Source of the DNA: Opitutia bacterium
GTDB taxonomy: Bacteria > Verrucomicrobiota > Verrucomicrobiia > Opitutales > Opitutaceae
Direction of reading: 5' to 3'
DNA length: 64,000 bases
Assembly: GCA_947478395.1 (NCBI GenBank)
Contig: CANJVR010000003.1
Span: 320,001 to 384,000, forward strand
Shown: positions 40,497 to 59,440 of the stretch, piece by piece
How positions within the stretch are numbered: position 1 is the first letter of the stretch
How the letters are laid out: each line of letters opens with the position of its first letter
Program-made: the position numbers and the translations under genes
Notes under the pieces: generated by a model
Told to the model about the DNA's origin: nothing
Seen by the model: only the letters and a program-made list of their open reading frames with translations
Database searches by the model: none

Positions 40497-40573
40497 GTCC
40501 CCATCGTCTAGCCTGGTTAGGACACTACCCTTTCACGGTAAGAACCGGGGTTCGAATCCCCGTGGGGACGCCA
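40497..40573 (+). tRNA. tRNA-Glu (TTC)
   Basis: Cloverleaf: GTCCCCA/TGGGGAC acceptor stem, CT-TTC-AC anticodon loop, GGTTCGAATCC T-arm, encoded CCA. Confidence 0.96.
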
Positions 40574-40650: not shown

Positions 40651-41325
40651 TTATTTTTTTCGCCGAAGCGGCTGGCTTTCCCGGGGGCGGACGGCGAGGT
40701 CTGCGACCATCGTGTTGAGCTCGGCGAGACCGAACCCGATCTTTTTGAAAAACGAGTCGTCGTGCCGTACCACGACGAACCGCGAATGGTGCGTCCATAG
40801 TTTGCGGAGCCGGGCATCGAGCTTCGCGGCCTGCTTGATCGATTCATTGCGCACGGGATTGCCGCCCTCCACCTGCAGGCCGCCTATGGCGGCGCTCTCA
40901 AAAAAAATCACGCCGTCATAACGCGCGAGTTCGTGCTCGAGGGTGGTGCCGAGCGCGTCGAAAAAATCGCCCGGTGCTCCAGGCCAATAGGCCGCGCCAT
41001 CTACCGTGCCGCGGTCGCAGAGCAGGATGCGGTCGGGGTAGCGCGCGGATTGCACGTCCTCGAGATTGCGTTGTACGTGGAAGATGGCGCGCTGCGCGGC
41101 GAGGAGGCCGGCGCGCTGGGTGTAGCGGGGAAAACCGCCGGAAAAAATTAACGTGGCCGCTTCTGGCACGACGACGACCCGCTCGCCGATTTCCCGGCGA
41201 AATAGGTCCGCCGCCGTGGTCTTTCCGCCGCCGGGCCCGCCGGTCAGCACGATGCGGCAGCGGCGGTCTCCGTTTTCGTCCTGCGATCGGTGGACGAGTT
41301 TGGGTTTAGGTCGCGCCATGGTCAT
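40651..41325 (-). CDS. P-loop NTPase (AAA_28 / NadR-kinase-like)
   Basis: IVLTGGPGGGKTT, VPEAAT, LCDRG..D. Confidence 0.85.
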   Translation of the reverse strand: MTMARPKPKLVHRSQDENGDRRCRIVLTGGPGGGKTTAADLFRREIGERVVVVPEAATLIFSGGFPRYTQRAGLLAAQRAIFHVQRNLEDVQSARYPDRILLCDRGTVDGAAYWPGAPGDFFDALGTTLEHELARYDGVIFFESAAIGGLQVEGGNPVRNESIKQAAKLDARLRKLWTHHSRFVVVRHDDSFFKKIGFGLAELNTMVADLAVRPRESQPLRRKK

Positions 41326-41417
41326 GGTGGGGCGGATTTTTTCGGGATCGATAAGTGGAAGCGCGGTTGAAATTTCGTTCGTCTGGCTGCGCCCACGCGG
41401 CCTTTTGCGCGGTCTGG

Positions 41418-41720
41418 TCAGCGGCGGGCCCGGCGAAAAGCCGACACTGCGCCGAAGGCTCCGGGCAACCAGCGCAGCACCGTGCCGAGCAATTTGAAGC
41501 GAGGAAACGCCACCCGCACGGCGACCCCGGCCAGGGGACCCGCCGCGAACGTGGCGAAGGGTGCGAGCTGGCGCCAGAGACTGTAAGCGCGATCGATCCA
41601 CGCCAGCGGTTTACTCACCGCCGCTGCGACCTCAAGGTAGTGCACGCGGCGGTGGGCCATCGACTGACGCACCACGGCCTTGCGGCGGGCCAGCTGGTTT
41701 AATTCTCCTTGGGGATACAT
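41418..41720 (-). CDS. YqjK-like small protein
   Basis: L..RK.....I...R pattern; third gene of the elaB-yqjE-yqjK triad. Confidence 0.6.
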   Translation of the reverse strand: MYPQGELNQLARRKAVVRQSMAHRRVHYLEVAAAVSKPLAWIDRAYSLWRQLAPFATFAAGPLAGVAVRVAFPRFKLLGTVLRWLPGAFGAVSAFRRARR

Positions 41721-42091
41721 GCGCGGTCTTCCTTGAGCTCATCGATGGTCGCAGCGAACGGCCGCGGCTGGCGCGCGAGGTAGCGCTGGAACGCGATGAC
41801 AATCGCCACCGCCGCACCTGAGTAGAGCAACGTCAGCCCACCCAGAACGGTGAGTCGCGCGCTTTCCCAGAAAAAATAAACCAGCGTGAGGCTCGCGAAG
41901 GTGAGGGCCATCGCGCCCGCAAACATCGCTGCACTGATCCAGATGAACGATTGGAGCAGGCGGAATTTCTCCTCCTGCAGCTCGAGCGAAACAAGTTCGA
42001 CCCGATCCTGCAGGCTGCCGAGGAGCGCGTCGCCGAGCTCGCGGAACGAGTCCAAGATGCCCGGCGGGCGATCGCGAGGGGACATGGTCAT
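41699..42091 (-). CDS. YqjE-like membrane protein (phage-holin superfamily III)
   Basis: R.EL...EL.EEK.R, two TM helices, F..T..EL..DR. Confidence 0.85.
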   Translation of the reverse strand: MTMSPRDRPPGILDSFRELGDALLGSLQDRVELVSLELQEEKFRLLQSFIWISAAMFAGAMALTFASLTLVYFFWESARLTVLGGLTLLYSGAAVAIVIAFQRYLARQPRPFAATIDELKEDRACIPKEN

Positions 42092-42096
42092 CGCCC

Positions 42097-42414
42097 TTAC
42101 TTTGAGCGCCGGCTGACGAGCAGGCCAATCACGACGCCGACGCCCGCGGCGATGGCGAGCGACTGGTACGGGTTTTCGCGGATCGCCTCGTCGGCGGAAC
42201 GGACGCCCGCCGCCACTTTTTTCTTCGTGCCGTCGTAGAGGTCCGACAGGCGTTCCTGGGCCGCGGTGAATCGCGCCCGCATGGCTTCCATGGCTTCGTG
42301 GGAGTGTTCGGAGACGGAGGTCTCCATCATTTTTTCCGCCTCCACCACGAGGTGACGGAGATCGTTGAGGAGTTCTTCGGGCGTTTCAGCTGGAATGTGA
42401 GTGCGATTTTTCAT
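42097..42414 (-). CDS. ElaB/YqjD (DUF883) family protein
   Basis: DL..LV..AE; C-terminal D..IRENPYQSLAIAAGVG..IGLL.SRR. Confidence 0.92.
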   Translation of the reverse strand: MKNRTHIPAETPEELLNDLRHLVVEAEKMMETSVSEHSHEAMEAMRARFTAAQERLSDLYDGTKKKVAAGVRSADEAIRENPYQSLAIAAGVGVVIGLLVSRRSK

Positions 42415-42483
42415 GGTGATTAATGGTTGCGGGGTTTTTTCGGGGAAATTTTTAGGCAGGGTAGCGGTCGGCGCAGGCTTGGG

Positions 42484-42768
42484 TTAGGCGGCGAAGCCGA
42501 ACCGGTCTTTCACGGCCACCACGTCGATCGAGAGGCATTCGCGCAGCATCGCGGCGGCGATGCGGTCGATCGCGACCTTGAGCATGCGGTCAAAGGCGTG
42601 GCCCGTCAGCGGCGCGCCGTGATGGCGGATGGCCTTGATGCGGGCCCCGGCGGCCAGCAGATGCATGAGGAATTCCTCCGCTTCCACGGGGTCGTCGGTA
42701 AAATGGGTAAACACGCGGGTGCTGTGCTGAGGGCGTACAATGTAATCGATGGCGAATTGGGTGAGCAT
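42484..42768 (-). CDS. Hypothetical protein
   Basis: 94-aa ORF with normal composition inside a co-oriented cluster. Confidence 0.7.
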   Translation of the reverse strand: MLTQFAIDYIVRPQHSTRVFTHFTDDPVEAEEFLMHLLAAGARIKAIRHHGAPLTGHAFDRMLKVAIDRIAAAMLRECLSIDVVAVKDRFGFAA

Positions 42769-42816
42769 GATTTTGGGGGATTTAAGGAAAGGCTGTAGTG
42801 GGTGGAGCGGGAGCGG

Positions 42817-43539
42817 TTACGCGACGGTGGTTTGGTTCGGGGAGAGGCGGGCATGAAACTCGCGGGCTCTTTCGAGCAACTGGGCGTCGGTCAGATGATG
42901 TTCATCGACCACGAGAGTACCCACGATGCGGCGGGCGATTTCCGGACGATGAGATTTAACCCACGCGACAAACTGTTCCATCTCGCTGCCCTGGCCTTTG
43001 CCGCTGCCGAAAATCACGATCTCTCCGTCTTTCTTCAGCGACGCGGGCGTGGAGATGAGCGCGTTTACAACCGCACCGAAGAAACTGTTCGCATCCGGTT
43101 TCTCCATGCCCCGCGAAAAATCCTTGGAGTTGTGGGCATGGCGGAAGAATTCGTGCGGGCCTTGGGACAGGATCTGCTGGGCCGCCTTGGGTGGCATCTC
43201 GGAGTGAAAAATCCGGGCCTGATGGTGGTTGATGACTACAAGCCAGTGAGATTTCCCGACAATGGTTGCTGGCAGCGGCGTTTCCGATTGCTCAAGAAAC
43301 TTTCGCAGCTCGGTGAGTTCGAAAAGGTCGGTGACCTCCTTGGTGCGGGGGACATGGAGCGTGAGGGTGCGACCGTTGCGAGTGGCTTTGAGGTTACCGT
43401 TGGCCTCCTCGGTGACTGCGCCCAGCTGACGCAGCAGGATATAGACGTCATGCCAGACGAGATTGTGCGGCGCGGGATGGTGAAATATCGATTCGTAGGT
43501 CTGGAGTTGTGAGCCCGTGAGCGAGGAGGATGAGGTCAT
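42817..43539 (-). CDS. Fusion of HicA-like domain and eRF1-domain-2/host-attachment-like domain
   Basis: N-term IFHHP..NL.W.D...LL..LG...H.P..K...LRKFL; C-term HWLVVINHHQARIF...EIVIFGSG.G...IVG...D..LTD.QLL..AR.F. Confidence 0.7.
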   Translation of the reverse strand: MTSSSSLTGSQLQTYESIFHHPAPHNLVWHDVYILLRQLGAVTEEANGNLKATRNGRTLTLHVPRTKEVTDLFELTELRKFLEQSETPLPATIVGKSHWLVVINHHQARIFHSEMPPKAAQQILSQGPHEFFRHAHNSKDFSRGMEKPDANSFFGAVVNALISTPASLKKDGEIVIFGSGKGQGSEMEQFVAWVKSHRPEIARRIVGTLVVDEHHLTDAQLLERAREFHARLSPNQTTVA

Positions 43540-43681
43540 GTTGAAGTGGGTGGCGGGATGGAATGCGGTGGTCGTGTTCTGAAAAAGAATGGGCAAACGG
43601 AAGGCGCGGCGCGGGGCGGATCTGGCGCTTTGGTTTGCATCGCTGGCTCGGGGTGCAGCCCTCGTGGAAAAACGGAACCGG

Positions 43682-44416
43682 TCAGGCGGCGAGGTGGCCA
43701 TTTGCGTGGGCGGTTTCAAACCAAGCGGAAGGGGGTGAACCGGGCGCGAACTCCGGGCACGTCTCGGCGAGCAGTTTGCGAAGATTTTCGCGTGCGCGGG
43801 CGATGCGGCTCTTGACCGTCCCGACCTTGATGTGAAGCGCCTGCGCGATCGCCTCGTAGGAGTAGTGATGGATGTTGTGCAGCGTCAGAATCTCGCGCCG
43901 CTCGGCGGAGAGTCGCTCCATGCAGGTGGCGATGAGCGCGGAAAATTCCCCGTTAACGGCTTCGCGTGTGGGATCGGGCGCCTCTGAGGCGATGAGTTCG
44001 GTGAAGGTGGCGCCGGCGTGGGCTGTGAGCGGGTAGTCGAGCGAAAGCGTGGCGTGGCGGTGGCGCCGGACGTAATACCAGTAGCGGTTGCGCGCGAGAT
44101 TCGTCGCGATGTGGTGCAACCACGTGGCGAGCGAGCAGTCGCCGCGGAAACGGCCGAGACCGCGATGCGCCCGGAGGAATGTGTCCTGCGTGATTTCCTC
44201 GGCGTCGGCCCGGTCGTGGAGCATGCCGAGGACCTTCGCGAAAGTTTTCCGCTCGTGGCGGTGCATGATCTCGATGAAAGACGTCTCGTCGCCGCCGTTG
44301 AAACGGCGCACAAGCCCGGCATCGATGGCGGCTTCGCATTTAGCGGCGGCGTGTGGGCCGGCCTGATCGGCCGTGAACGAGTGCGGGGAGGCGGGGGTGG
44401 GGTGAACGGTGGACAT
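43682..44416 (-). CDS. ECF RNA polymerase sigma factor
   Basis: DAEEITQDTF, FRGD.S..TWL..IA.N, YE.IA..L....GTVKSRI.RAR. Confidence 0.92.
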   Translation of the reverse strand: MSTVHPTPASPHSFTADQAGPHAAAKCEAAIDAGLVRRFNGGDETSFIEIMHRHERKTFAKVLGMLHDRADAEEITQDTFLRAHRGLGRFRGDCSLATWLHHIATNLARNRYWYYVRRHRHATLSLDYPLTAHAGATFTELIASEAPDPTREAVNGEFSALIATCMERLSAERREILTLHNIHHYSYEAIAQALHIKVGTVKSRIARARENLRKLLAETCPEFAPGSPPSAWFETAHANGHLAA

Positions 44417-44451
44417 GGCGGAAGGCTGGTTTCCAGAAGTGCGGTGGTGTT

Positions 44452-45420
44452 TCAGGCCGCGCTGGCGAAGGAGAAGGAACTGCTGATGGACCGTGCGGAC
44501 TGGTGCAGCCGGTCGTGATAGCGCGAAGGCGATTCGCCGGCGATGCGGTGGAACACCCGGTTGAATTGCGAAAGCGACTGGAAGCCGGCCGCGAAGGCGG
44601 CCTCGCTCATGCGGGCGTGGGGATTGAGCAGCATATGCTTCACGGTCTCGACGCGTAGCCGCGCCAAGTACTCCGTAAACGTAAGGCCCGTCACCTTTTT
44701 GAAGACCTTGCAGAAATAAAACGCACTCATGTTGGCTACGCGGGCAACATCCGCGAGGGCCAGATCCTCGCTCTGTTGCGCCGCGATGAACGCGCGCGCC
44801 CGGGCGATGGCGGGCAATTCGGACTGTGCTTCGCTGACCATCACCTGATTGCTCAGCGAACCGAGGTGCTGGGCAAAAATTCCCAAGAGTCGAACGACGG
44901 AGTCGTAGTGTTTTTTCGCCACGACCCGAGTTTTGAAAAAAGCTGTTTCGAGCTCGTGACGGTCGACGCTCGATCCCCACTGGGTCAGTTGATTGGCGAT
45001 ACGGTTAAAATGGGTCCGTGAAGTTTTTTTCATGAATACCTGGCCCGTCTGCAAATAGCCGAGAACCTCGTTTCCGGCCCGCACCGGAATCGCGGATTCA
45101 GTCAGGCCGGCGAAGCACACCAGCGTTTTCGCCTCGGCGGCGGCTTCCGTTTCCACGCGCTGCTGGAGTTGCAGGCAGGCCGCGCACGATTTGTTGCTCG
45201 AGGCCAGCAGCGCGCAAAAGGCGTTGGCGTGCTTGGAGCCGTAAAGCGGGGATTGAAATGATCCTCGCTGCCGGAGCACCAGCGGCAGGCCCGTGGTAGC
45301 TTCGAAGGCCTTCTGGTATTCGCGAAAAATTTCGGAGCGCTGCAAATGCGGAATGGCACTGCGCTCGGCGGGGTTGCGGTCGTCCGCCGGCGTCGCGGAA
45401 ATCAGAGATGTGGTTCGCAT
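44452..45420 (-). CDS. AraC-family regulator with N-terminal PocR ligand-binding domain
   Basis: F..ATGL, N.FC..C..C, CFAGL....P...G.L..GQV; C-terminal AraC HTH (FKK.TG..F.EY, GFQSLSQFNR.F). Confidence 0.9.
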   Translation of the reverse strand: MRTTSLISATPADDRNPAERSAIPHLQRSEIFREYQKAFEATTGLPLVLRQRGSFQSPLYGSKHANAFCALLASSNKSCAACLQLQQRVETEAAAEAKTLVCFAGLTESAIPVRAGNEVLGYLQTGQVFMKKTSRTHFNRIANQLTQWGSSVDRHELETAFFKTRVVAKKHYDSVVRLLGIFAQHLGSLSNQVMVSEAQSELPAIARARAFIAAQQSEDLALADVARVANMSAFYFCKVFKKVTGLTFTEYLARLRVETVKHMLLNPHARMSEAAFAAGFQSLSQFNRVFHRIAGESPSRYHDRLHQSARSISSSFSFASAA

Positions 45421-45479
45421 CGCCGACATCTTACGGTAACGGAGCGCCGCGGGAAATTGGAGGTGCGACCTTATCTTTA

Positions 45480-45494
45480 TAAGGAAAATTCTTA
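45480..45494. promoter_or_regulatory. Putative NarL/RcsB-type operator
   Basis: TAAGGAAAATTCTTA imperfect palindrome about 60 bp upstream of the PocR-AraC gene; related TAAGGGAATTGCCTA at 47405-47419. Confidence 0.45.
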
Positions 45495-45942
45495 GGCCCA
45501 CCGCGTAAAAACCCAGACATGCGCGGGAGCAAGGTCCGTCCGGTCTTTCGCAAACGATGTGAAACGGAAGAACGGAAACGGCCTTATGCGATCCCCGATG
45601 CGATCTCCTTGGACCAATATGACGACCGCGAGCTACCATTTGGGGAAAGTACCCCAGGTTCGCGTTGAGGACTTCCATGCGCTTTGGCGTTTGCGCCCTG
45701 GTGCAAGGACACGGAGCAAAGTCCGTTCAAGAATTTTTCCTGGTGGTTTTGCCGCCGAGCCGTAGCGCCCTTTTCTGGGCGTGGACTCTGGCCGCGGAAC
45801 GCCCGGGTCTGAAGGCCCCCTCGAAAGATTTAGAGCGGAAAAAACGTCCAAGGAGGGATTTTCCGGGTCCACGCGGCTCGACGTTCGACGCCGCGCAAAA
45901 GTGTGACATGCTCGCGAGCGGTGCGGCCCGCGGTCGCCGCCT

Positions 45943-46560
45943 TCAATCTTCGATTCGCGCAGGTTCCGGAGCTTCGATGTCCTGATATGCCCGGCGGATT
46001 TCTTCGAGGTGACTGCGATATTTTTCGGCGTCGCCGAAATCGATAAAATTTTTGTAACGACTGTGCGCACATTTCACGCAACCCGCGTGTTTAATGGGGC
46101 ACCAGTGTTGCTCGGTTCGCGCGGCGATCTCGGTGAAGTACGCGAGGATGCCGTTGGCGTAGGCACAGTACTCGCAGTTAAGTTTTTCGAAGAAGTTCAG
46201 ATAGTTCAGGCGATGGCGGTCGAACGCGATGTAGTCGCGCCGGCTGACTTTGGGTATGCCATAGATCGGAAAGCAGATCGCTTGATAGAGGGAGCCGATG
46301 ACGTCCGTGAGAACAATGGGGAGCAGGCAGGCCCAAATGACCGGTGCGGTGAGGAGAACGAGAAAACGGGAGTTCAGTAAATAGCGGTGGAAGCTGAGGC
46401 GGAGCGCCCGATGCTTGGTTTTCGCCACCGTAGTAAACTGCACCTTCTTCTCGTGAATTTTGTAGCAGAACTCGGTTTCTTTCTTCCGAGTTTCGCGAAT
46501 GAGTTCCTGTTCCAGCAGCCGGATCTGACCGAGCAGCGCTTCGAGTCTGTCATTTCTCAT
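45943..46560 (-). CDS. Cys/His-rich hypothetical membrane protein
   Basis: Hydrophobic segment followed by YQAICFP, NCEYCAY, RTEQHWCPIKHA. Confidence 0.8.
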   Translation of the reverse strand: MRNDRLEALLGQIRLLEQELIRETRKKETEFCYKIHEKKVQFTTVAKTKHRALRLSFHRYLLNSRFLVLLTAPVIWACLLPIVLTDVIGSLYQAICFPIYGIPKVSRRDYIAFDRHRLNYLNFFEKLNCEYCAYANGILAYFTEIAARTEQHWCPIKHAGCVKCAHSRYKNFIDFGDAEKYRSHLEEIRRAYQDIEAPEPARIED

Positions 46561-46771: not shown

Positions 46772-47254
46772 TTATGCGCTGCGCAGGGTAGCTTCATTCA
46801 CGCCGGGAGCGAAGAACGCGCAGCCTGCTTCCTTGGCTAGGCGTTGCACGGTCTGTAGGCGCGGCGAATCCACGCGATCAGGCAAATCGGCGCGGCCAAA
46901 GAACGCGGCCACGGCGGTTGTGGCGTTGTGCCGCCCGGTCAGGCACTTTCCCAGCCAGCTTTCGACGGACAAAGGCAGCAGCCGGAGTACGCTGGACGTG
47001 GCGATGACGATCAAGTCGGCTTCGACCGCGGCAGCCATCGCGTGCGCCCGATACTCCGGATCCTCCAGCGTCGAAAAACTCCACGGCGACAAGTGCGGTT
47101 CCGGGCCGTCCGGAATCCGGCGGAGCAGCGCGGTAATAGTTTCCGCCGCCCACATCGCCGCGGCGATGTTTTCGTAGGCGAGGATAACGGTCATTTCGGC
47201 GGGCGTGCTGGCATCGGCGCAATCGAGTGCGGTCAAGGTGGCGGGGGTGTGCAT
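46772..47254 (-). CDS. Hypothetical alpha/beta protein
   Basis: VILAYE, W.F..L, EADLIVIA, LP..V..W pattern; divergent from the kinase operon. Confidence 0.65.
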   Translation of the reverse strand: MHTPATLTALDCADASTPAEMTVILAYENIAAAMWAAETITALLRRIPDGPEPHLSPWSFSTLEDPEYRAHAMAAAVEADLIVIATSSVLRLLPLSVESWLGKCLTGRHNATTAVAAFFGRADLPDRVDSPRLQTVQRLAKEAGCAFFAPGVNEATLRSA

Positions 47255-47465
47255 GGCTTTGGTTTGATCGTACTGTTTGGGGGACTCGGAACTGCGGCGC
47301 GTCAAACAGGGCCAATATGACCGGGAGAGAAGATCGTCGCTAACATCGTTCCACCCTAGCAGCACGGCGCGTCGCCGGAAATTGGAGGAACAGCGGTATC
47401 TCGCTAAGGGAATTGCCTAGTCTCGATAGGCCGCCGGCTGACAAGAAGCGCCTTGCCGTGCCCGC

Positions 47466-48731
47466 GTGACGCGTAACGCTACGACGGTGCCGTCGAGAGA
47501 TTTTTCCACCCCGACCAAGGAAGAATTGATTGCGCGCTTGGAGCGTTTCGCGCGTGAGCGGACCGAATCCGAACGCGAACTGCGCGCCGTGGTGAAGGAG
47601 TTGCGCGCCGTGAAAGCGGCGCTCGACGAACATGCGATCGTCGCGATCACGGACGCGGCCGGAAAAATCACGTACGTAAACGACAAGTTTTGCGCGATTT
47701 CAAAAATCTCCCGCGAGGAATTGCTGGGCCAGAATCATCGCATCATCAACTCGGGCTATCACCCTAAGGAATTTTTTCGCAGTCTCTGGGCGACCATCAG
47801 CCGCGGCGAAATTTGGCATGGTGAAATCCAGAACCGTGCGAAGGACGGGGAGATTTATTGGGTCAATACCACGATCTACCCGTTTGTCAGCGAGGACGGA
47901 AAGCCGGTCCAGTACGTCGCCATTCGCACGGACATCACGCAGCGCAAGGCGGACGAAATTGAACTGCAGCAATTCGCATCCGATCTGGCGGAAAAGAACA
48001 AGGAGCTAGAGGCGATTGTTTATACCGTGTCGCACGATCTGCGTTCGCCGCTGTTGAACGTCCAGGGCTTTGCGCGGCAGCTCGCGCAGGCGTGCGCTTC
48101 AATCCAAGGGGCGACCGCCGCGGCGCACGACGGCCTGGTTCCAGTCGCCGCGTTGAAGGCACCGCTCGAAACCACCATTCCGCAGGCGCTGCGGTTCATC
48201 AGCGCGGGCGTGCACAAAATGGAGATGCTGCTCGCCGGTTTGCTGCGCTACTCACGCTTGGGCCGGATGACGTTGAACATCGGCCCGATTCCCATGAACG
48301 AGCTGCTGGCGGAAATCGTCGCGGCGATGAGGTTCCAGATCGATCAGGCGGAGGCCGAAATCGTAGTCGATCTGCTCCCCGCCTGCCGCGGCGATCGCAC
48401 CCAAACCAATCAGGTTTTTTCCAACCTGATCGACAACGCGCTGAAGTTTCGCGATCCGGCCCGGCCGCTGCGGATCACGGTGACGGGTGGCATCGCCAGC
48501 GGGAAGGCGCTTTATCAGGTGGCGGACAACGGGATTGGCATTGCTCCCTCGCACCAGGCGAAGGTTTTCGAAATCTTTCATCGGTTGGACCCGGAGAAAA
48601 CGACCGGCGAGGGCCTCGGATTGACGATCGCCCAGCTCATCCTCGACCGGCAGCACGGCGGGATCAGGGTCGAGAGCCAGCCGGGCCAGGGTTCCAGTTT
48701 TTTCGTTTCCCTTCCGGCCGTCGAATCCTAG
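47466..48731 (+). CDS. Cytoplasmic PAS-domain histidine kinase
   Basis: PAS/PAC (ITD..G.I.YVN..F, W.GEI.NR.KDG), SHDLRSPL H-box, NL..NA.KF, DNG.G, G.GL. Confidence 0.93.
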
Positions 48732-48747
48732 GCGGCCGCCCCCAACT

Positions 48748-49203
48748 ATGAAAAACGCCCCGACTATTTTGATCGTCGATGACGATGAAGGTCATGCGAT
48801 CCTGATCCGACAAAATCTGGAGCTGGCTGGTTTGAGTAACCGCATGGAGCATTTCTGGAATGGGCAGGAAGTTTTAGATTTTCTTTTTCTCCGTCAGCCC
48901 GACCGCTCCCGAGAAATTGGGGAAAATTATCTAGTCCTGCTCGATATGCGCATGCCGAAGGTCGACGGCGCGGAAGTCCTGCGGCAGATCAAGGCGGATC
49001 CGGAGTTACGCAAGCTGTCGGTCATCATGTTGACGACGACGGAGGACGCCCGCGACGTGGAGCGGTGCCACGAATTGGGGTGCAGCGTGTACGTGCAAAA
49101 GCCGGTAGACTACGACCGGTTTACCGAGGCGGTCCGCCGGCTCGGGCTTTTCGTGCCGCTAATGCTGACGCCACCGTTGAACGGGCCGCCGGCGAAGTCC
49201 TAG
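48748..49203 (+). CDS. Single-domain response regulator
   Basis: VDDD, LLDMRMPK, MLTT, KP. Confidence 0.93.
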   Translation: MKNAPTILIVDDDEGHAILIRQNLELAGLSNRMEHFWNGQEVLDFLFLRQPDRSREIGENYLVLLDMRMPKVDGAEVLRQIKADPELRKLSVIMLTTTEDARDVERCHELGCSVYVQKPVDYDRFTEAVRRLGLFVPLMLTPPLNGPPAKS

Positions 49204-49205
49204 TT

Positions 49206-50255
49206 ATGGCCAGGTCCGTCACGCCGCCGCTGATTCTGATCGTCGATGACGACGAGGGTCTTCGCATTCTGATGGCGGACGCTTTTCGCCACGAAGGATG
49301 CGAGGTGGCGACAGTCGATTCGGGGGGCGCGGCCCTGGCGTGGCTGGAGACCCGGACGCCGGCTTTGATGTTGCTTGATCTGAAGATGAAGGACCTCGGT
49401 GGCCCGGCGTTAATCGAGCGGCTCAAGCAGGAAAATTCCCTGGTGCCGTTTGTCGTCGTGACCGGACAAGGCGACGAAAACGTCGCGGTCGAAATGATGA
49501 AACAGGGTGCGCTCGACTACGTGATGAAGGACACGGGGCTGCTCGACCGGTTACCGATCGTGGTTAAACGCGCACTGGATGTGCTAGAGCGGAACCGGGC
49601 GCTGGCGGAGGCCGACACCGAAAGGGGGCTGCTGCAGAAGGAGATCGTTGAGATCAGTGAACGGGAGCAGCAACGCATCGGTCAGGATTTGCACGATGGT
49701 CTCGGGCAGCAGTTGACGGCGATCGAGATGCTGTGCGCAGGTCTTAAGAGTGATGTCGGGTCGCAGCCGGCGCTTAAGAAACAAGTGGAGCTGATCGCGA
49801 AATCGATCCGCGAGGCGATCACGTTTGTCCGTCGGGTATCGCGCGGACTGGCGCCGAAGAACGATGAACCCCGTGCGCTGGAAGGCAGCCTGACCGCACT
49901 CGCCGAGCTTTCGAATTCCCTGGGATCCACGCGGTGCTATTTTGAGTGCCCCGAGCCCGTCGTCATCGACGATGGGGTGAAGGCCGGATCGCTTTACCGG
50001 ATTGCGCAGGAAGCGGTGAACAATGCGCTCAAGCACAGCGGCGCTGGGGAAATCGTGGTGAGTCTCACGCAAACGGTCGAAGCCGTGAAACTCCGCATTT
50101 CCGACAACGGCGGCGGTTTCGACCAACGGAGCGGGAGTGGCATGGGGCAGCAGGTGATGAAACACCGCGCCGCCAGCATCGGCGCGGAATTGAAGGTCGA
50201 TTCGAAGGCTGGCCACGGCGTGTCGGTTACCTGCATCCTGCCCCGAGCGCTATGA
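49206..50255 (+). CDS. Hybrid receiver + HisKA_3 (NarX/NreB-type) histidine kinase
   Basis: N-terminal REC; EQQRIGQDLHDGLGQ, YRIAQEAVNNALKH, DNG.GF. Confidence 0.92.
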   Translation: MARSVTPPLILIVDDDEGLRILMADAFRHEGCEVATVDSGGAALAWLETRTPALMLLDLKMKDLGGPALIERLKQENSLVPFVVVTGQGDENVAVEMMKQGALDYVMKDTGLLDRLPIVVKRALDVLERNRALAEADTERGLLQKEIVEISEREQQRIGQDLHDGLGQQLTAIEMLCAGLKSDVGSQPALKKQVELIAKSIREAITFVRRVSRGLAPKNDEPRALEGSLTALAELSNSLGSTRCYFECPEPVVIDDGVKAGSLYRIAQEAVNNALKHSGAGEIVVSLTQTVEAVKLRISDNGGGFDQRSGSGMGQQVMKHRAASIGAELKVDSKAGHGVSVTCILPRAL

Positions 50256-50962
50256 AACAGCCTAGAAAAAATTCGGCTGCGGCGAAAGTGGCCGTCCAGC
50301 CCCAGACGCCGGAGCGCAAAAAAATTCTGCTGGTGGACGATCATCCCTTTATGCGGGCCGGGGTGGCTCAGTTGATCGATAAACAGCCCGATCTGGTCGT
50401 ATGCGGAGAGGCCGGCGACCCGGGCGCCGCCATGGGTGTGCTCGCGAAAACGAAAGCCGACCTGGTGCTCTCCGATATCACCATGCCGGGACGCAGCGGT
50501 CTCGAGTTCATCAAAGATCTTTTGGCGCAGTATCCCAACCTGCCCATCATCGTGCTTTCGATGCATGACGAAATAATTTACGCCGAACGAGCGCTGCGCG
50601 CCGGCGCGCGTGGTTACATCATGAAGGAGGCCGGCGGAGAAAATCTCTTGGCCGCGATCCGGCAGGTTTTGGGCGGACAGGTCTATGTGAGTCTCAAAAT
50701 GTCGGCGAACATCTTGGATAGTTTCTCCGGCCGGAAATCCCGGGATTCAAACTCGCCATTTGGCAAACTCACGGACCGCGAGTTCGAGGTGTTTCAGCTC
50801 GTCGGCCAGGGGAAAAGCACGCGGGACATCGCCGCGCAATTGAATCTTAGCCCCAAAACGGTCGATGTGCACCGCGGGCATATCAAAGAAAAATTAGATT
50901 TGAAGGATTCCACCGCCCTCGTTCGGCATGCAATCCGGTGGGTGGAAACCTCGAAGGGGTGA
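50252..50962 (+). CDS. NarL/LuxR-family response regulator
   Basis: VDDHP, DITMP, LT.RE.EV, S.KTV..HR..I..KL. Confidence 0.95.
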   Translation: MKQPRKNSAAAKVAVQPQTPERKKILLVDDHPFMRAGVAQLIDKQPDLVVCGEAGDPGAAMGVLAKTKADLVLSDITMPGRSGLEFIKDLLAQYPNLPIIVLSMHDEIIYAERALRAGARGYIMKEAGGENLLAAIRQVLGGQVYVSLKMSANILDSFSGRKSRDSNSPFGKLTDREFEVFQLVGQGKSTRDIAAQLNLSPKTVDVHRGHIKEKLDLKDSTALVRHAIRWVETSKG

Positions 50963-52079: not shown

Positions 52080-52655
52080 ATGGAGACCATAGAATCGATT
52101 TATCACCGCCGCGCGGTGCGCCACTACACGCCTGAAGCGGTGCAACCGGCGGTGCTCATGCAATTGCTCGATGCGGCGGTGCAGGCGCCGAGCCCGTTGA
52201 ATTCCCAGCCGTGGTCCTTCGCCGTTTTCTGCGGCCGAGCGCGGCTCGCCGGCTTTTCGACGCGGATCAAAGAGCATTTGCTGCTCACTCTGCCTTCGAC
52301 GTGTGATTTGCACGAACATGTCGATCGGATGAACCGGCCCGAATACGATGCGTTTCACGGCGCGCCGGCCCTGGTGCTGATTTGCGCTAAACCGCAGGGA
52401 TATTCGCGGGAGGAGTCCTGCGCGTTGGCCGCCCAGAATCTGATGCTGGCTGCGCACGCTTCGGGACTCGGCACCTGTCCGGTGGGCTTTGTGCGGTCTT
52501 GGTTTCGATTGCCGCACATCAAGGACGAGCTGGATATCCCGGGAACGCACCTTCCGATGTTTCCGTTGGTCGTCGGGCATCCGGATGGGCGACCCGCGCC
52601 GCCGAATCATAAAAGGCCTGAAATTTTGGTTTGGGCCGATGGCGCGAGTGGGTGA
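52080..52655 (+). CDS. Nitroreductase family protein
   Basis: RRAVRHY, APS..N.QPW.F, AP, QNLMLAA...GLGTC. Confidence 0.92.
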   Translation: METIESIYHRRAVRHYTPEAVQPAVLMQLLDAAVQAPSPLNSQPWSFAVFCGRARLAGFSTRIKEHLLLTLPSTCDLHEHVDRMNRPEYDAFHGAPALVLICAKPQGYSREESCALAAQNLMLAAHASGLGTCPVGFVRSWFRLPHIKDELDIPGTHLPMFPLVVGHPDGRPAPPNHKRPEILVWADGASG

Positions 52656-52665
52656 AGACGGTGGG

Positions 52666-53055
52666 TCATGTTCGCGCTCGTGGCGCGTGAGCCACCGAGA
52701 AGCGAGTCCAAGGGAGCGCACGGAGGCGTTCCGCCGGAATCGGCTGGTGACTGGCGAGGCAGATGCCGTAGGTCCCCGCCAGCAGCCGCTCCAATGCGGC
52801 GTCCACCTCGGCGAGGTGGTTCGCCTCCGATTTCACCTCGGAGATGAGATTTTCAAATTCGCTTTCGTCGGTGGCGCGGTCGCCGAAACCTGAATCGGTT
52901 TTTTCCAACGCCCCGGCTGCGGTCAGGTGGTCACGGGTTTTTCCCTGCAACTCGGCGCGCAGGCGTAGCAGCGTTTTCAAATGCCACTGCCATTTTGTCG
53001 GAATGCAGAATTTGGCCGCGGGGTTTGCGTTAGGTTTACGTGAGCGGGAGGTCAT
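52666..53055 (-). CDS. DksA/TraR family protein with degenerate zinc finger
   Basis: Coiled coil with GDRA, L.EVD.AL.R...GTYG.C, IP.ERL.A.PW. Confidence 0.85.
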   Translation of the reverse strand: MTSRSRKPNANPAAKFCIPTKWQWHLKTLLRLRAELQGKTRDHLTAAGALEKTDSGFGDRATDESEFENLISEVKSEANHLAEVDAALERLLAGTYGICLASHQPIPAERLRALPWTRFSVAHAPRART

Positions 53056-53352
53056 GGGATGATTGGGCGTGAAGGCGAGAATTCGAGTTCGACGGCTGGA
53101 CTTCGGCGGTCGCAGAAATGGGGTGGCGTTGGCCCAGTGAGCAGAACGCACCGACTTCGTTTTGGGCGATCGTGCGGATGATCACGGAGAATTCGGTCAC
53201 AGAAGGGTCGCGCTCGCCGGCATCGAGCGCCGGCAGGGCGGCCTGCGACAGCACGAGCGCCTCCCGGTGCGCGCGGATGGTTGGGCGTCGGGAGCGCGAT
53301 GTCCGCACGAATTTTTCTCGCATGAGATGACTGTGCCATTCGCGGCGCTTTC

Positions 53353-53393
53353 TGGCTCCGCACCGATTGGCGAACCATGCGCATGTTTTGGCT
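53353..53393 (-). promoter_or_regulatory. 41-bp motif, copy C (toward dksA)
   Basis: Minus strand CAA-aacat-GCGCA-N8-CAA-tcggt-GCGGAGCC, 17 bp before CACAGT. Confidence 0.65.
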
Positions 53394-53409
53394 GAGCCGA
53401 TTTTGCCCA

Positions 53410-53450
53410 CCGCAAGAAACGCACAGGCTCCGCCAAGCCACGCGGAGCCC
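53410..53450 (+). promoter_or_regulatory. 41-bp motif, copy B (upstream of DUF2934-cco operon)
   Basis: CAA-gaaac-GCACA-N8-CAA-gccac-GCGGAGCC, 18 bp before TACAGT (TGn-extended). Confidence 0.7.
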
Positions 53451-53498
53451 GCCTCCCGCCGCGTTTGCTACAGTGGTGGCCATCAACCCGCACCATTC

Positions 53499-53708
53499 AT
53501 GAAAAATAACTCCGCCGTGCTGCACGAACCCACCGAGGCCGAAATTCAACATCAGGCGTACCTCATTTGGTGTGAAGGGGGCTGCCGCGACGGCACCGCC
53601 TTGGAGGACTGGCAAGCTGCCCAAGAGTTGCTGCGGCACCGGCATGGCCGGGCCCATCCGGCGCCCAAAATACTCGCAGGCAAACGGCCCGCGCTCGGCG
53701 CTCGCTGA
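53499..53708 (+). CDS. DUF2934-family small protein
   Basis: I...AY.IW...G...G.A..DW..A pattern. Confidence 0.8.
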   Translation: MKNNSAVLHEPTEAEIQHQAYLIWCEGGCRDGTALEDWQAAQELLRHRHGRAHPAPKILAGKRPALGAR

Positions 53709-53990: not shown

Positions 53991-56318
53991 ATGTCCGACA
54001 AGAAAATCACCCTCGAGTTTAACGACAAAGTCGTACGCCAGTTCCTGCTCGCCTCCGTCATTTGGGGCGCCGTGGGCATGATCGTGGGCGTGCTGATCGC
54101 GTCGCAGCTCAACTTCTGGCGTCTCAATTTCAACCTGCCGTGGCTCACCTTCGGCCGGTTGCGACCCCTGCACACCAACGCGGTCATTTTCGCACTCGTG
54201 GGCAACATGATGTTTGCCGGCGTTTATTATTCCACCCAGCGGCTCGTGAAGGCGCGGCTCGCGAGTGATTTTCTCTCGGCGCTGCACTTCTGGGGCTGGC
54301 AGGCCATCATCGTCGCCGCCGCGATCACGCTCCCGCTCGGGTTCTCCCGCGGCAAGGAATACGCGGAGCTGATCTGGCCGATCGACATCGCCGTCACACT
54401 CATCTGGGTCGTGTTTGCGGTGAATTTTTTCTGGACGCTCGCGCGCCGGCGCGAGCCGAGCCTCTACGTCGCGATCTGGTTCTACATCGCGACGATCGTC
54501 ACCGTGGCGATGCTCTACATCGTCAACCATCTCTCGTTGCCGACGAGTTTGGTGCACAGCTATCCGCTTTTCGGCGGGGTGCAGGATGCGCTCGTGCAGT
54601 GGTGGTACGGGCACAACGCCGTGGCGTTCTTCCTCACCACACCGATCCTCGGCATCATGTATTACTTTCTGCCGAAGGCGGCGGAACGTCCGGTGTATTC
54701 CTACCGGCTCTCGGTGATTCATTTCTGGTCGCTCGTCTTCGTCTACATCTGGGCCGGTCCGCATCATTTGCTGAACACCGCACTGCCCGGCTGGCTGCAA
54801 AATCTCGGCATGACCTTCTCGCTCATGCTCTGGGCCCCGTCATGGGGCGGCATGCTCAACGGCCTGCTCACGCTCCGCGGCGCCTGGCACAAACTCCGCA
54901 CCGATCCGGTTCTGAAATTTTTCGCGGCCGCGGTCACATTTTACGGCATGGCGACGTTTGAGGGGCCGCTTCTCTCAATCAAGTCGGTCAACGCGCTCGC
55001 GCATTACTCCGACTGGATCATCGGCCACGTCCACGCCGGCGCCCTCGGCTGGAACGGCTTCATGGCGGCAGGCATGTTCTACTGGCTCGTGCCGCGGCTC
55101 TGGAGCAAACCGCTCCACTCGGTCGCGATGGCCAACCTGCACTTCTGGATCGGGACGGTCGGCATTCTCCTCTACGTTGCGGCGATGTGGACGAGTGGGA
55201 TCACGCAGGGCGTGATGCTCAACGCCACCACCGACGGTGGCACCGTCCTCGCTTACCCCAACTTTCTCGATACGCTTAATGCCATTCGATTCATGATGCT
55301 GATGCGCGTCGTAGGGGGCGCGCTGTATTTCACCGGTTGGTTGCTCATGGCTTTCAACCTCTGGAAAACCATCCGCCACGCCCAGCCGGTCAACGGCACG
55401 ATCGAGGTGTTCGAAGATGAGCCGGTCGCCGCCGCCGCCGAAACCGGACTCTCGGTGCTCGGCACTTTCCTCAACCCGCCCGTGCTGTTCTCGATCTTCG
55501 GCATCGCATTCGCGAGCGCGTGGATGTTTGGCAATCATCTCCTGAGCGTCGCCGGTCTCGTCGGTCTGATGCTCAGCGTCATTCTCGCTTACTCGCATTT
55601 CGAGTCGCGCGGCAAAGCCTGGGCGGGATGGTACGACCGGCTCCTCGTGAATTCGCTGCCGTTCACCTTGCTGACGTTGCTCGCGGTGGTCGCCGGCGGG
55701 CTGATCCAGATCATCCCGACGGTGCTCGTCGAGAAAGCCGTGAATCTCGAGGACCGTCGGCAGATTCCTTACACGCCGCTCGAACTCGCCGGTCGCGATC
55801 TCTATGTGCGCGAGGGCTGCTATAACTGCCATTCACAGATGATCCGTACGCTCGTCCCGGATGTCCTCCGCTACGGCGACTATTCGCGCCTCGGCGAATC
55901 GATCTACGATCATCCATTTCAATGGGGCTCGAAGCGCACCGGTCCGGATCTCGCCCGCGAAGGCGGGAAGTATCCGAACATCTGGCACCTCCGCCACCTT
56001 GAGGACCCGCGCGGCATTTCCCCCGGATCGAACATGCCGAACTATCCCTGGCTCATCGCGGCCACGCTCGATACGAGCACGCTGTCCAAGAAGATCGCCG
56101 CCCAACGCGCGATTGGCGTGCCGTATCCGAACTGGACGCCCGAGCAAATCGCCACCCGCGTCGACGAGCAAGCGAAGGCCATCGCTCAGGATCTGCGCAC
56201 CGCCGGCGCCTTTGTCGCACCGGACAAAGAGGTCATCGCGCTCATCGCCTACCTTCAAAAGTTGGGCTCCTACGAGATCGTGCGCGGCGGGCCGACAAAA
56301 GTAGCGGGTAGCGAATAG
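53991..56318 (+). CDS. ccoN: cbb3-type cytochrome c oxidase fused subunits I/II (CcoN-CcoO)
   Basis: FGRLRPLHTN, QWWYGHNAV, WAGPHHL, GHVH; then EGCYNCHSQMIR and WGSKRTGPDL. Confidence 0.97.
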   Translation: MSDKKITLEFNDKVVRQFLLASVIWGAVGMIVGVLIASQLNFWRLNFNLPWLTFGRLRPLHTNAVIFALVGNMMFAGVYYSTQRLVKARLASDFLSALHFWGWQAIIVAAAITLPLGFSRGKEYAELIWPIDIAVTLIWVVFAVNFFWTLARRREPSLYVAIWFYIATIVTVAMLYIVNHLSLPTSLVHSYPLFGGVQDALVQWWYGHNAVAFFLTTPILGIMYYFLPKAAERPVYSYRLSVIHFWSLVFVYIWAGPHHLLNTALPGWLQNLGMTFSLMLWAPSWGGMLNGLLTLRGAWHKLRTDPVLKFFAAAVTFYGMATFEGPLLSIKSVNALAHYSDWIIGHVHAGALGWNGFMAAGMFYWLVPRLWSKPLHSVAMANLHFWIGTVGILLYVAAMWTSGITQGVMLNATTDGGTVLAYPNFLDTLNAIRFMMLMRVVGGALYFTGWLLMAFNLWKTIRHAQPVNGTIEVFEDEPVAAAAETGLSVLGTFLNPPVLFSIFGIAFASAWMFGNHLLSVAGLVGLMLSVILAYSHFESRGKAWAGWYDRLLVNSLPFTLLTLLAVVAGGLIQIIPTVLVEKAVNLEDRRQIPYTPLELAGRDLYVREGCYNCHSQMIRTLVPDVLRYGDYSRLGESIYDHPFQWGSKRTGPDLAREGGKYPNIWHLRHLEDPRGISPGSNMPNYPWLIAATLDTSTLSKKIAAQRAIGVPYPNWTPEQIATRVDEQAKAIAQDLRTAGAFVAPDKEVIALIAYLQKLGSYEIVRGGPTKVAGSE

Positions 56319-56393
56319 GTCGAACCACGAAGGACCGACTCCCGCGCCCCGCTTTTCCTCCGCCTTCTCCACCCATTCCTTCTTTTCCCTCCC

Positions 56394-56591
56394 GTGTTCA
56401 AACGACTCGTCTTTGAAGAATCCGCTGCGCTGTTCACCATCACCGCTTTTGTCACCGCGGTCTCGATCTACGTCGCCGTCACTTGGCGCGCCGTGCGGAT
56501 GAAGCGTCCGCAACTTGAGCGCTTTGAGAACCTGCCTTTCGCCATCGCCACGCCCGCCGCCGTCCATGACACCGACCAACTTTCCGCCTGA
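56394..56591 (+). CDS. CcoQ-like small subunit
   Basis: One TM helix plus 'ENLPF'; lies between ccoNO and ccoP. Confidence 0.6.
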   Translation: MFKRLVFEESAALFTITAFVTAVSIYVAVTWRAVRMKRPQLERFENLPFAIATPAAVHDTDQLSA

Positions 56592-57144
56592 AGACACCGA
56601 TCGTCTCCGTCACCACCGCTTCGACGGCATTCAGGAATTCGACAAGCGCCTCCCAAACTGGTGGCTGATGACACTCTACGGCTCGATCCTCTTCTGGGTC
56701 GGCTACTGGGGTTACTACCAATGGCTGAAAGCCGGCCCGGACGGCCCGCAGGAAATCACGCTGGCGATGAGCCGGATTGAGGCGGCGCGCCTCGCCTCGG
56801 CGCCGACGACGGACGATCCCAGCCTTTGGAAAATGAGCCGCAACCCCGTGATCGTCGAGTCGGGCCGGGCCACATTCAACACCACGTGCGCAAGCTGTCA
56901 TACCGACAAGCTCACCGGCGCGATCGGCCCCAACTTGGTCGACCGGCTCTGGATTCACGGCGGCAAACCCGCGGAAATCTACGTTACGGTGGACAAGGGC
57001 GTGCTCGCTAAAGGCATGCCGCCGTGGGGCCCCATCCTCGGCCCCAAGAAAGTCAGTGAGGCCGTCGCTTATATTCTCAGTTATCACACCGAAGGAGAAC
57101 CCATCGAGGTGCAGGCCGCGTGGATTCCCGTGCTGCCGAAGTGA
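56566..57144 (+). CDS. ccoP: cbb3 oxidase subunit III (monoheme CcoP)
   Basis: H.FDGI.E.D..LP.WW, CASCH, GPNL.D..W.HGG, GMP.W. Confidence 0.92.
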   Translation: MTPTNFPPEDTDRLRHHRFDGIQEFDKRLPNWWLMTLYGSILFWVGYWGYYQWLKAGPDGPQEITLAMSRIEAARLASAPTTDDPSLWKMSRNPVIVESGRATFNTTCASCHTDKLTGAIGPNLVDRLWIHGGKPAEIYVTVDKGVLAKGMPPWGPILGPKKVSEAVAYILSYHTEGEPIEVQAAWIPVLPK

Positions 57145-57174
57145 CGCGTACATTCGCGCCGTTTCTCCTTCGTC

Positions 57175-58617
57175 ATGTCCCCTCCCGTTGCTCCGCCGCC
57201 GAACCGCGATTCTGTCACCACGATTGCGGCCGATGGCTCGCGGCGTTTGCTCTATCCGGCGGACACCCACGGTAGATTCACGCGCGCGCGTCAGTGGTCG
57301 GCCGCAGGGCTGATCGTATTCTACCTTTCGCTGCCGTGGATCAAAGTTAATGGGTATCCGGCGGTATTCCTCGATATCACGGAGCGGCGCTTCCACCTCT
57401 TCGGCCTCACGCTGGCGGCGCAGGATCTCTGGCTGATGTTTTTCCTGATCACGGGCGTCGGCTTCTCGCTCTTCTTTATCACGGCGTTGTTGGGACGCAT
57501 CTGGTGCGGCTGGGCTTGCCCGCACACGGTATTCCTCGACCACGTGTACCGCCGCATCGAACGCTGGATCGACGGCGATGCGGTCAGCCGCCGTGCGCTC
57601 GCCGCGGCGCCGCTGACGGCCGGAAAGTTTTTCAAACGCGCGCTGAAGCATACGCTCTACGTGCTCGTCTCGGCGGTGATCACGCACCTATTCCTCGCCT
57701 ACTTTGTTTCTCTGCCGGCCGTGTGGGCGATGGTGAGCGCAGCGCCCGTGGAGCATTGGAGCGCGTTTGGCTTCGTCGCGGTCTATACCGGCGGGCTCTA
57801 TTTCAACTTCGCCTGGTTTCGAGAGCAGCTCTGTATCGTCATCTGCCCGTACGGCCGCATCCAGTCGGCCTTGATCGACGACAACTCACTCGTGATTGGC
57901 TACGACGCGAAGCGCGGCGAACCCCGCGGGAAAGTGGGCCCGCCGAACGCCGGCGCGTGCGTCGCTTGCAACCGCTGCGTTCAGGTCTGCCCCACCGGCA
58001 TCGATATCCGGCAGGGCCTGCAGATGGAGTGCATCGGCTGCACGGCGTGCATCGATGCGTGCGACGACGTGATGGACCGGCTGCATCGTCCGCGGGGGCT
58101 GATTCGCTACGACTCGCAAACCGCCTTCGCCGGCAAAACCACCCGCTGGCTGCGGCCACGCACAATTTTATACGGCGTCCTGCTCACCGTGGGCGCGACC
58201 GTCGCGACTTGGGCGCTGTCGACGGTACGACCAGCCAATCTTGGCGTCACTCGGATCACGGGCGCGCCCTACATCGTCAGTGCGGACTTTGTGCGGAATC
58301 AGTTTCTCGTGCGTCTGGTCAACAAGCGCAACGAGCCCGCGCGCTTCGTGCTCCGCGTCGGGGACGCGCCGGCCGCACTTCGGCAGACCGGCCTGACCTC
58401 GACCATCGAAGTCGCCGCGCTCGCCGAGATAGTCCAGCCGTTGGTACTGCAGATGCCGCGTGCGGCGTACACCGGTCCGTTTCACTTCGAGATGCGCGTG
58501 CGGGACGAGGCGGGGACGTTTCACCTGGAACGCACCGCGGAGTTTCTCGGGCCGGAAGCGCGTTTATTGCGGGAAGACGAGGAGGATGAAAAACGTGAGC
58601 ACGAATCCAAAAAATAA
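57175..58617 (+). CDS. ccoG: cbb3 accessory ferredoxin-like protein CcoG/FixG
   Basis: GRIWCGWACP, REQ.C...CPYGR.Q, two 4Fe-4S motifs. Confidence 0.95.
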   Translation: MSPPVAPPPNRDSVTTIAADGSRRLLYPADTHGRFTRARQWSAAGLIVFYLSLPWIKVNGYPAVFLDITERRFHLFGLTLAAQDLWLMFFLITGVGFSLFFITALLGRIWCGWACPHTVFLDHVYRRIERWIDGDAVSRRALAAAPLTAGKFFKRALKHTLYVLVSAVITHLFLAYFVSLPAVWAMVSAAPVEHWSAFGFVAVYTGGLYFNFAWFREQLCIVICPYGRIQSALIDDNSLVIGYDAKRGEPRGKVGPPNAGACVACNRCVQVCPTGIDIRQGLQMECIGCTACIDACDDVMDRLHRPRGLIRYDSQTAFAGKTTRWLRPRTILYGVLLTVGATVATWALSTVRPANLGVTRITGAPYIVSADFVRNQFLVRLVNKRNEPARFVLRVGDAPAALRQTGLTSTIEVAALAEIVQPLVLQMPRAAYTGPFHFEMRVRDEAGTFHLERTAEFLGPEARLLREDEEDEKREHESKK

Positions 58618-58741: not shown

Positions 58742-58743
58742 CC

Positions 58744-59439: not shown

Positions 59440-59440
59440 G

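Follow-up and report, generated by a model that had tools for sequence, protein, structure and literature searches.

The fusion gene and its neighbourhood

The window, which is the whole stretch of 64,000 nucleotides analysed here, holds on its minus strand (42817..43539) a gene for a 240-residue protein, P0001, that joins a degenerate HicA-type domain to a middle domain of the aeRF1/Pelota/Balon type, as judged from the ORF, its family and the predicted structure. The gene is one open frame, and the plus-strand frame over the same positions has a stop; in the alignment with a same-genus homolog, identity is 71% at the first two codon positions and 42% at the third, as expected for a minus-strand frame that is coding and under selection. 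The HicA-type domain covers residues 7-86 (43282..43521, minus strand), a variable linker of low model confidence covers residues 87-96 (43252..43281, minus strand), and the RNase H-fold middle domain covers residues 97-232 (42844..43251, minus strand). The full-length model had a pTM of 0.63, so that the orientation of the two domains is uncertain.

The gene is single-copy in this genome and belongs to a conserved family with members of about 230 aa: 404 of 1,054 candidates matched at E ≤ 0.001, and the best 120 of these 404 nearly all measure 225-276 aa. Clustering at 50% identity gave 1,538 clusters, 143 of them at E ≤ 1e-30, a count that takes in single-domain relatives. Matches to P0001 occurred in 43 of 251 sampled same-family genomes, and 37 of the 43 were full-length; the 301 genomes of the phylum gave five full-length matches, all within the Opitutaceae-level family. 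Named relatives outside the family come from Chthoniobacterales, Phycisphaerales, Rhodomicrobium and Syntrophobacterales; a relative on a Nostoc plasmid matches at 42% over 90%, another on a Granulicella plasmid is split across two annotated ORFs, and matches spanning both domains were confined, in 401 genomes from the phylum to which G301 belongs, to G301 itself. None of 161 pattern matches in viral contigs was a relative, and a search for shorter family forms returned eight proteins, mostly fragments. P0001 alone had no match in Pfam, NCBIfam or PADLOC; the sequences of P0001, A1, A2 and a stand-alone HicA found nothing relevant in the PDB, and the ESM Atlas, queried with P0001 and the neighbouring 94-aa protein, returned unnamed clusters only. 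P0001 is a divergent member, deviating at 23 of 130 conserved columns against a family median of 9.

As for the surroundings, the fusion gene stands in a same-strand run with an ECF-type sigma factor gene directly upstream (43682..44416), the 94-aa ORF (42484..42768), a DUF883 (ElaB/YqjD-like) gene (42097..42414), a gene for a Phage_holin_3_6 family membrane protein that follows it (41699..42091), and an AAA_28 ATPase gene adjoining tRNA-Glu; a PocR-sensor AraC regulator is encoded at 44452..45420, and all the coordinates in this list refer to the minus strand. The tRNA-Glu(TTC) (40497-40573) forms the left edge of the gene cluster and is a possible integration site; an Rfam scan of 39-63 kb found tRNA only, and the GC content of the cluster, 0.61, equals that of the genome. 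Two unannotated ORFs lie at 45943-46560 and 46772-47365; the one of 205 aa has a look-alike in the island of genome G483 (L104:16854) and the other in locus L019, so that both travel with the island. Next to them, positions 47466-50962 encode a PAS kinase, a receiver, a hybrid HisKA_3 kinase and a NarL-type regulator, a set that recurs in L019 and is a candidate for control of the island; genes for a nitroreductase, a DksA/TraR-type zinc finger and DUF2934 (52080-53708) separate these regulators from a cbb3-type cytochrome oxidase cluster (53991-61912), in which CcoN and CcoO are fused in a 775-aa gene followed by FixP, FixG, DsbD_2 and a heavy-metal ATPase. The oxidase cluster begins about 10 kb from the fusion gene.

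In 59 other fusion loci, with flanks mostly of 1.5-6 kb, the neighbours were CbpA/DnaJ (21 loci), PocR-AraC (6), the 94-aa ORF (4), DUF883 (2) and the sigma factor (1); within the same flanks, a single HPF query found HPF/RaiA in none of the 59, and the HPF gene of this genome is on another contig. In 6 of 28 loci NarL-type regulators were encoded nearby, and a gene of the zinc-dehydrogenase family is often next to it in relatives. The stress-type neighbours of the family comprise CbpA/DnaJ, CsbD, USP, YflT, DUF883, DUF2934 and fermentation enzymes; the setting is one of metabolic and stress genes, not of defence genes. In E. coli, members of DUF883 are reported to inactivate ribosomes (bioRxiv 2024.08.16.608256).

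The 94-aa ORF, proposed in the sequence-only reading as a candidate partner, turned out to be an occasional neighbour. It belongs to a Verrucomicrobiota family without a named domain and with several nearly invariant residues, present in 52 of 251 same-family genomes, 17 of which are among the 43 that match the fusion. It adjoins the fusion in 4 of the 59 other loci, and 6 of 30 loci of its own family, window included, have a fusion-family gene beside it; with such adjacency it is no fixed partner or antitoxin. The co-occurrence of the two genes fits shared membership of an island, and no weight was placed on the test statistic because the genomes are kin and not independent. The ORF sometimes follows a gene that has the C-terminal domain only (L129).

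The HicA-type and aeRF1-type domains

The HicA-type motif that the sequence-only reading had written out is present at the N-terminus (I18-F-H-H-P22, N26, W29, D31, L39-G40, H62-x-P64-x-x-K67, R79-x-F-L), with two spacings one residue longer than given there, and its assignment of this region to HicA was borne out by profiles and by the fold. HHalign of the N-domain family against five stand-alone HicA, four sets of which pass PF07927, gave 99.3% with E 4e-20 over 80 columns, and a HicA query retrieved the P0001 gene at 36% identity and E 5e-9. The family profile also retrieves stand-alone proteins of about 85 aa; those scanned pass PF07927, and for four of five the downstream gene passes HicB PF05534. 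The N-domain model, with a pLDDT of 84, has the HicA topology of helix, three strands and helix, preceded by an additional N-terminal helix, and its hairpin is formed by N47-G48-N49, a position that rests on the model and on the alignment to GSR-type HicA. All five best VIA matches of this model are HicA structures (1whz, 6g26, 6hpb, 4p78 and 5yrz), with modest Z values of 4.6-5.6, rmsd of 2.2-2.4 and 52-60 aligned residues. The per-domain Foldseek comparison that had been proposed gave no match at E ≤ 0.001 for this half, though VIA gave HicA; for the idea that this domain mimics HPF/RaiA, the 50 VIA matches listed contain no HPF. On sequence evidence, the N-domain is homologous to the HicB-paired HicA toxins.

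What distinguishes the fused domains from these toxins is the loss of their motifs. HxPHP was present in none of 73 fused domains vs 21 of 24 stand-alone HicA, and G[SA]R, anywhere in the domain, in 2 of 73 vs 22 of 24; GSH or GSR inside the hairpin occurred in none of the 73, and His at the canonical hairpin position 49 in four. The median net charge (K+R-D-E), a residue count and not a surface map, was -1 for the 73 fused domains vs +5 for the 24 stand-alone ones. For BpsHicA, toxicity is reported to require Gly22 and His24 of the first hairpin, and the surface is described as highly basic (PMC3969222); the hairpin Gly and His and the basic surface of HicA are also treated in PMC11594946. 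Other positions persist: H62 is retained in 87 of the 117 close homologs and in 31 of the 73 diverse ones, some His falls within residues 61-66 in 51 of the 73, and R79 is kept in 68 of them. The HicA-derived domain has thus likely lost its nuclease site, to judge from these motifs; inactivity is here something we infer, since Arg takes the place, in the nearest subgroup, of the His of characterised HicA, and the catalytic residue of this subgroup is undefined in the literature searched.

When 37 of the 73 fused domains were placed in one tree with the 24 stand-alone HicA, the two groups split with support 99/93, values that are rough and come from 81 columns of an unrooted tree. The N-domain is nearly always fused, and all of 101 new top matches carry both domains. 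Three stand-alone HicA-like genes without HicB (L167:1495-1776, L168:1453-1770 and L183:1507-1773), His-rich and weakly charged, branch apart from the 21 HicB-paired ones and are possible intermediates between toxin and fused domain. An N-domain-only member of the fused clade, also without HicB, was found in a box-rich stress island of genome G342 (L126:3034-3318).

Regarding HicB, the expectation that no such gene adjoins the fusion was confirmed: none was found in the window or in the family loci with a profile that recovered HicB in 3 of 3 held-out HicA loci, nor in 38 further loci. At the 59 other fusion loci (flanks mostly 1.5-6 kb, with L053 repeating L023) HicB was found in none, compared with 21 of the 24 for stand-alone HicA. 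The HicB HMM does not match the fusion gene itself, and PF05534 was not found in this genome, which is 98.8% complete. A short HicB of a different kind (PF15919) adjoins the genome's own HicA about 190 kb from the fusion; this short hicB-hicA pair (L086/L087, G000:C3:171.8-172.2 kb) follows gyrB, and an in-frame TAG lies near the start of its HicA match. A second HicA of the genome (L088), with a GSH motif, is on contig C1.

As for the C-terminal half, its proposed likeness to domain 2 of eRF1 was upheld by structure comparison. Among 48,161 chains, the top 11 matches of the P0001 middle-domain model were Pelota, Balon and aRF1/eRF1, with Z of 9.0-11.3; Pelota aligned to residues 96-233 with Z 11.3, rmsd 2.1 and 101 residues, and Balon 8rd8 with Z 11.2, rmsd 3.7 and 128 residues (the Balon entries 8rd8, 8v9l and 8v9k gave 11.2, 10.9 and 9.9). 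The first unrelated fold ranked after these, at Z 8.3, and the RNase H-like fold that is common to actin-like kinases and other proteins fell at Z 7-8.3. Foldseek, productive for this domain, matched Pelota with E 4e-6, and a stand-alone relative matches positions 128-219 of the Pelota model TIGR00111 at E 7e-4. In the predicted models, then, both the dsRBD-like and the RNase-H-like eRF1 folds were obtained, and residues 97-232 are modelled as a middle domain of aeRF1 type that has no GGQ. P0001 itself has a seven-residue insertion (161-167) that is absent from the other 116 close homologs.

The likeness to host-attachment (baeRF) proteins held at the level of the clade; the closest named stand-alone relatives are 'translational machinery protein' and 'stalled ribosome rescue protein Dom34' (HHalign 98.7%), and not Host_attach PF10116 (46.6%). 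The described baeRF families gave weak matches only, baeRF12 in 4 of 73 members (best E 0.0015), baeRF10 in 2 and Host_attach in 1; none of the 73 diverse members exceeded the Pfam cut-off for a baeRF family or Host_attach, and PF03464 had no match in the 301 genomes of the phylum. Stand-alone forms of the middle domain are common across the genomes sampled. In P0164, P0180, P0198 and P0161 the family's middle domain follows an unrelated N-terminal extension resembling DUF2934, and PF11154 matched 2 of the 73 aligned members.

The place of the aeRF1 GGQ loop, assigned from the fold, is taken by a long, low-confidence, His-containing loop at residues 125-149 (43093..43167, minus strand). The absence of GGQ from P0001 extends to the family, with none in 117 close and none in 73 diverse members. 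The loop varies from 21 to 34 residues across the family; R143 and K147 are kept in 114 of the 117 close homologs, and in only 13 and 11, respectively, of the 73 diverse ones.

Regulation, histidines and proposed role

The fusion genes of most relatives are preceded, mostly at 100-130 bases, by a near-palindromic 18-bp box that mostly scores 12-29 bits. The box model was seeded by eye from 25 training loci, 14 of which exceed 9 bits, compared with 7 of 500 shuffles; 24 of 36 further loci also exceed this value, or 20 of 29 once seven repeats were removed. Its spacing to a CATnnT element suggests, on sequence grounds, an activator site near -41. The box is found at many promoters of an Opitutaceae fermentation and stress island, sometimes between divergent pairs (L104-L105 at G483:C8:98001-138000, L126 and L133), and the promoters so marked form an apparently unnamed regulon. 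In G483, six of the nine genome-wide sites lie within a 33-kb island around the fusion gene, with phosphoketolase, acetate kinase, transaldolase, PGI, aldolase, P-type ATPases, YflT and DUF2934. The present genome has one occurrence of the pattern vs nine and five in two relatives, and the copy in the window (43646..43663, minus strand), at the same distance as in relatives, is degenerate at 2.1 bits. With the box decayed, this copy of the gene probably has another mode of expression, perhaps read-through out of the sigma-factor gene upstream. A sigma-70 scan of 41300-45700 returned no sites, and FNR/FixK-type boxes numbered four in the window vs 3.1 expected per 64 kb, with none at the fusion gene.

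Expression data on a stand-alone relative come from Bradyrhizobium diazoefficiens, where bll4412, taken as the ortholog of the sequence compared on account of its name and of the presence of B. diazoefficiens in the same cluster, is listed as 20.7-fold lower without FixK2 at 0.5% O2 and as having a FixK2 box (PMC9104804, Table 2). The same list reports a host-attachment gene as FixK2-activated at 0.5% O2, and includes phosphoketolase, DnaJ, PpsA, nitroreductase and a holin-family gene (PMC9104804), gene types that are also seen around the fusion family. Both bll4412 and the host-attachment gene appear in the microoxia comparison tables of PMC6515984.

The proteins are also rich in histidine, which accounts for 6.7% of the residues in P0001 and for about 7% in the family; among 1,057 script-called proteins of 150-350 aa of this genome the median is 2.0% and the 99th percentile 5.3%, and two reach the family level. 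The computed median charge of the family moves from -4.3 at pH 7.5 to +4.4 at pH 6.0. Conserved His residues occur in both domains (H21, H25, H105, H134, H136 and H215), and none is invariant among the diverse members; the richness could reflect a pH switch or a metal site.

By analogy with Balon, P0001 may serve, in low-oxygen or stationary-phase stress, as a ribosome-binding and ribosome-parking factor without catalytic activity, a reading to which we give an even chance; with relatives lying among stress and fermentation genes, the fusion likely helps to park ribosomes under low-oxygen stress and not to destroy RNA. An activator binding the box would switch the gene on together with the island; the middle domain would dock in the 50S A site, its long loop reaching the peptidyl-transferase centre without releasing the peptide, as that of Balon does; the HicA domain, placed where aeRF1 and Balon have the decoding-site domain, would add a second contact with RNA or the ribosome; and the many histidines may strengthen binding as the cytoplasm acidifies. 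The Balon middle domain is reported to sit at the peptidyl-transferase centre and to keep it inert (PMC10901736), and for baeRF families that consist of this domain only, Burroughs and Aravind proposed an equivalent action (PMC6514570); tests of any stand-alone middle-domain protein were not found in the literature searched. The more specific proposal, a new two-domain class of hibernation factor in which a domesticated HicA replaces the decoding-site domain, the EF-Tu-binding domain is dispensed with and a histidine-rich surface turns binding on as fermentation acidifies the cell, is doubtful. Several observations count against ribosome parking: the aeRF1 decoding domain and the EF-Tu-binding domain are missing, the family is slightly acidic at pH 7.5, HPF was found at none of the 59 loci, the box is degenerate here, P0001 is divergent, and DUF883 is a neighbour in only two of the 59.

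The sequence-only reading had offered a ribosome-targeted RNase or a silencing factor; the silencing, or hibernation-type, role is kept as the leading hypothesis, and the RNase part is not, as the HicA motifs and the basic charge are lost. An RNase of this kind, in which the middle domain brings a still-active HicA to its target, rRNA or the mRNA in the A site, and either tight transcription or ribosome-dependent activation keeps toxicity in check, would be consistent with the clear HicA homology, with a nearest HicA subgroup that is GSR and not GSH and has its catalytic residue undefined in the literature searched, and with the retained His in residues 61-66 and R79; we consider it improbable, given that both motifs of that subgroup are gone together with the basic charge, the canonical hairpin His survives in only 4 of 73 domains, there is no antitoxin, the neighbours are not defence genes, and no relative was found in viral contigs. 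Still less credit goes to a one-gene toxin-antitoxin, like the fused HicAB of Gerdes, in which the C-terminal RNase H-fold domain would block HicA in cis. HicB is reported to adopt part of an RNase H fold and fused HicAB genes occur (bioRxiv 2023.12.08.570793), and the 101 new top matches all have both domains, but HHalign of the middle domain to a four-sequence HicB profile gave 0.19%, the domain is a full aeRF1 middle domain that stands alone in many genomes, and the G342 gene has the N-domain only and no HicB.

Two further readings concern the middle domain and the histidines. A stop-codon-independent rescue factor, with the Gln of a loop GQ dipeptide hydrolysing peptidyl-tRNA, would fit the GQ of 64 of the 117 close homologs, among which G144 is invariant, and the naming of stand-alone relatives after Dom34 in databases; it is very unlikely, because P0001 has GM there, Gln is found in only 19 of the 73 diverse members, and a loop of such variable length is a pattern tied to inactive baeRF families in PMC6514570. 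It is unlikely that the fusion is a stress protein with no action on ribosomes, serving as a His-rich metal or pH sensor built on two borrowed folds and acting on some other RNA or protein of the island, such as CbpA/CbpM. The high His content with conserved His in both domains, a net charge near neutral, CbpA as a frequent neighbour (21 of 59 loci) and HPF at none of the 59 speak for such a sensor; against it, every one of the best matches, by structure and by profile, is a factor of the ribosomal A site, and the lack of an invariant His in the diverse set argues against a fixed metal site.

Returning to the ribosome-parking reading, P0001 is a small, soluble candidate hibernation factor with hundreds of homologs, at a time when a 2025 survey argues that many such factors arise by fusion and await discovery (bioRxiv 2025.11.04.686544). 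If it binds ribosomes, the middle domain of aeRF1 can function in the absence of the domains that usually flank it, and the stand-alone baeRF and 'translational machinery' proteins become directly testable; if the reading is true, a toxin domain has been turned into a protective translation factor.

Comparison with known systems

The two-domain architecture is real and apparently undescribed, inside a known clade. A HicA-aeRF1 fusion was not found in the literature searched, which covered few subscription journals. None of the 14 HicA contexts described by Gerdes has an aeRF1-type domain (bioRxiv 2023.12.08.570793, whose supplements may list such proteins), and the family headers in the supplement of Burroughs and Aravind give baeRF as stand-alone, N plus middle, or three-domain proteins, with no HicA fusion; all eight 'hica' strings there are species names.

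The stand-alone baeRF-1 middle-domain proteins (families 1, 13 and 14 of Burroughs and Aravind 2019, with 'translational machinery protein', bll4412 and Host_attach PF10116) have the same RNase H-fold domain as P0001 and, like its family, they lack the catalytic Gln, have a variable loop and are found in a low-oxygen or stress gene context; P0001 differs in its N-terminal HicA-type domain and falls below the Pfam cut-offs for baeRF and Host_attach. With the HicA toxins (PF07927, GSR and HxPHP subgroup, paired with HicB PF05534), the N-domain shares the fold and homology over 80 residues; unlike them, P0001 has lost the motifs, the basic charge and the HicB partner, and is a two-domain protein instead of a small single-domain one. 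The fused HicA classes 11-14 of Gerdes also place HicA in a multi-domain gene, but there the reported partners are HicB or SMC (bioRxiv 2023.12.08.570793).

Balon (PMC10901736) resembles P0001 in its middle domain (Z 9.9-11.2), in having no GGQ, and in a stress-operon context, DnaJ being among its reported neighbours. It has about 360 aa, compared with about 230 in the P0001 family, and its N- and C-terminal domains are reported to contact the decoding centre and EF-Tu (PMC10901736); P0001 is without the aeRF1 N-domain and the EF-Tu-binding C-domain, and no RaiA neighbour was found at its loci. Only the middle domain of P0001 aligns with Balon (model residues 93-240), its N-domain being of HicA type. 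In conclusion, the fusion is not a member of Balon or of the HicA toxins, and it may, by analogy, work like Balon.
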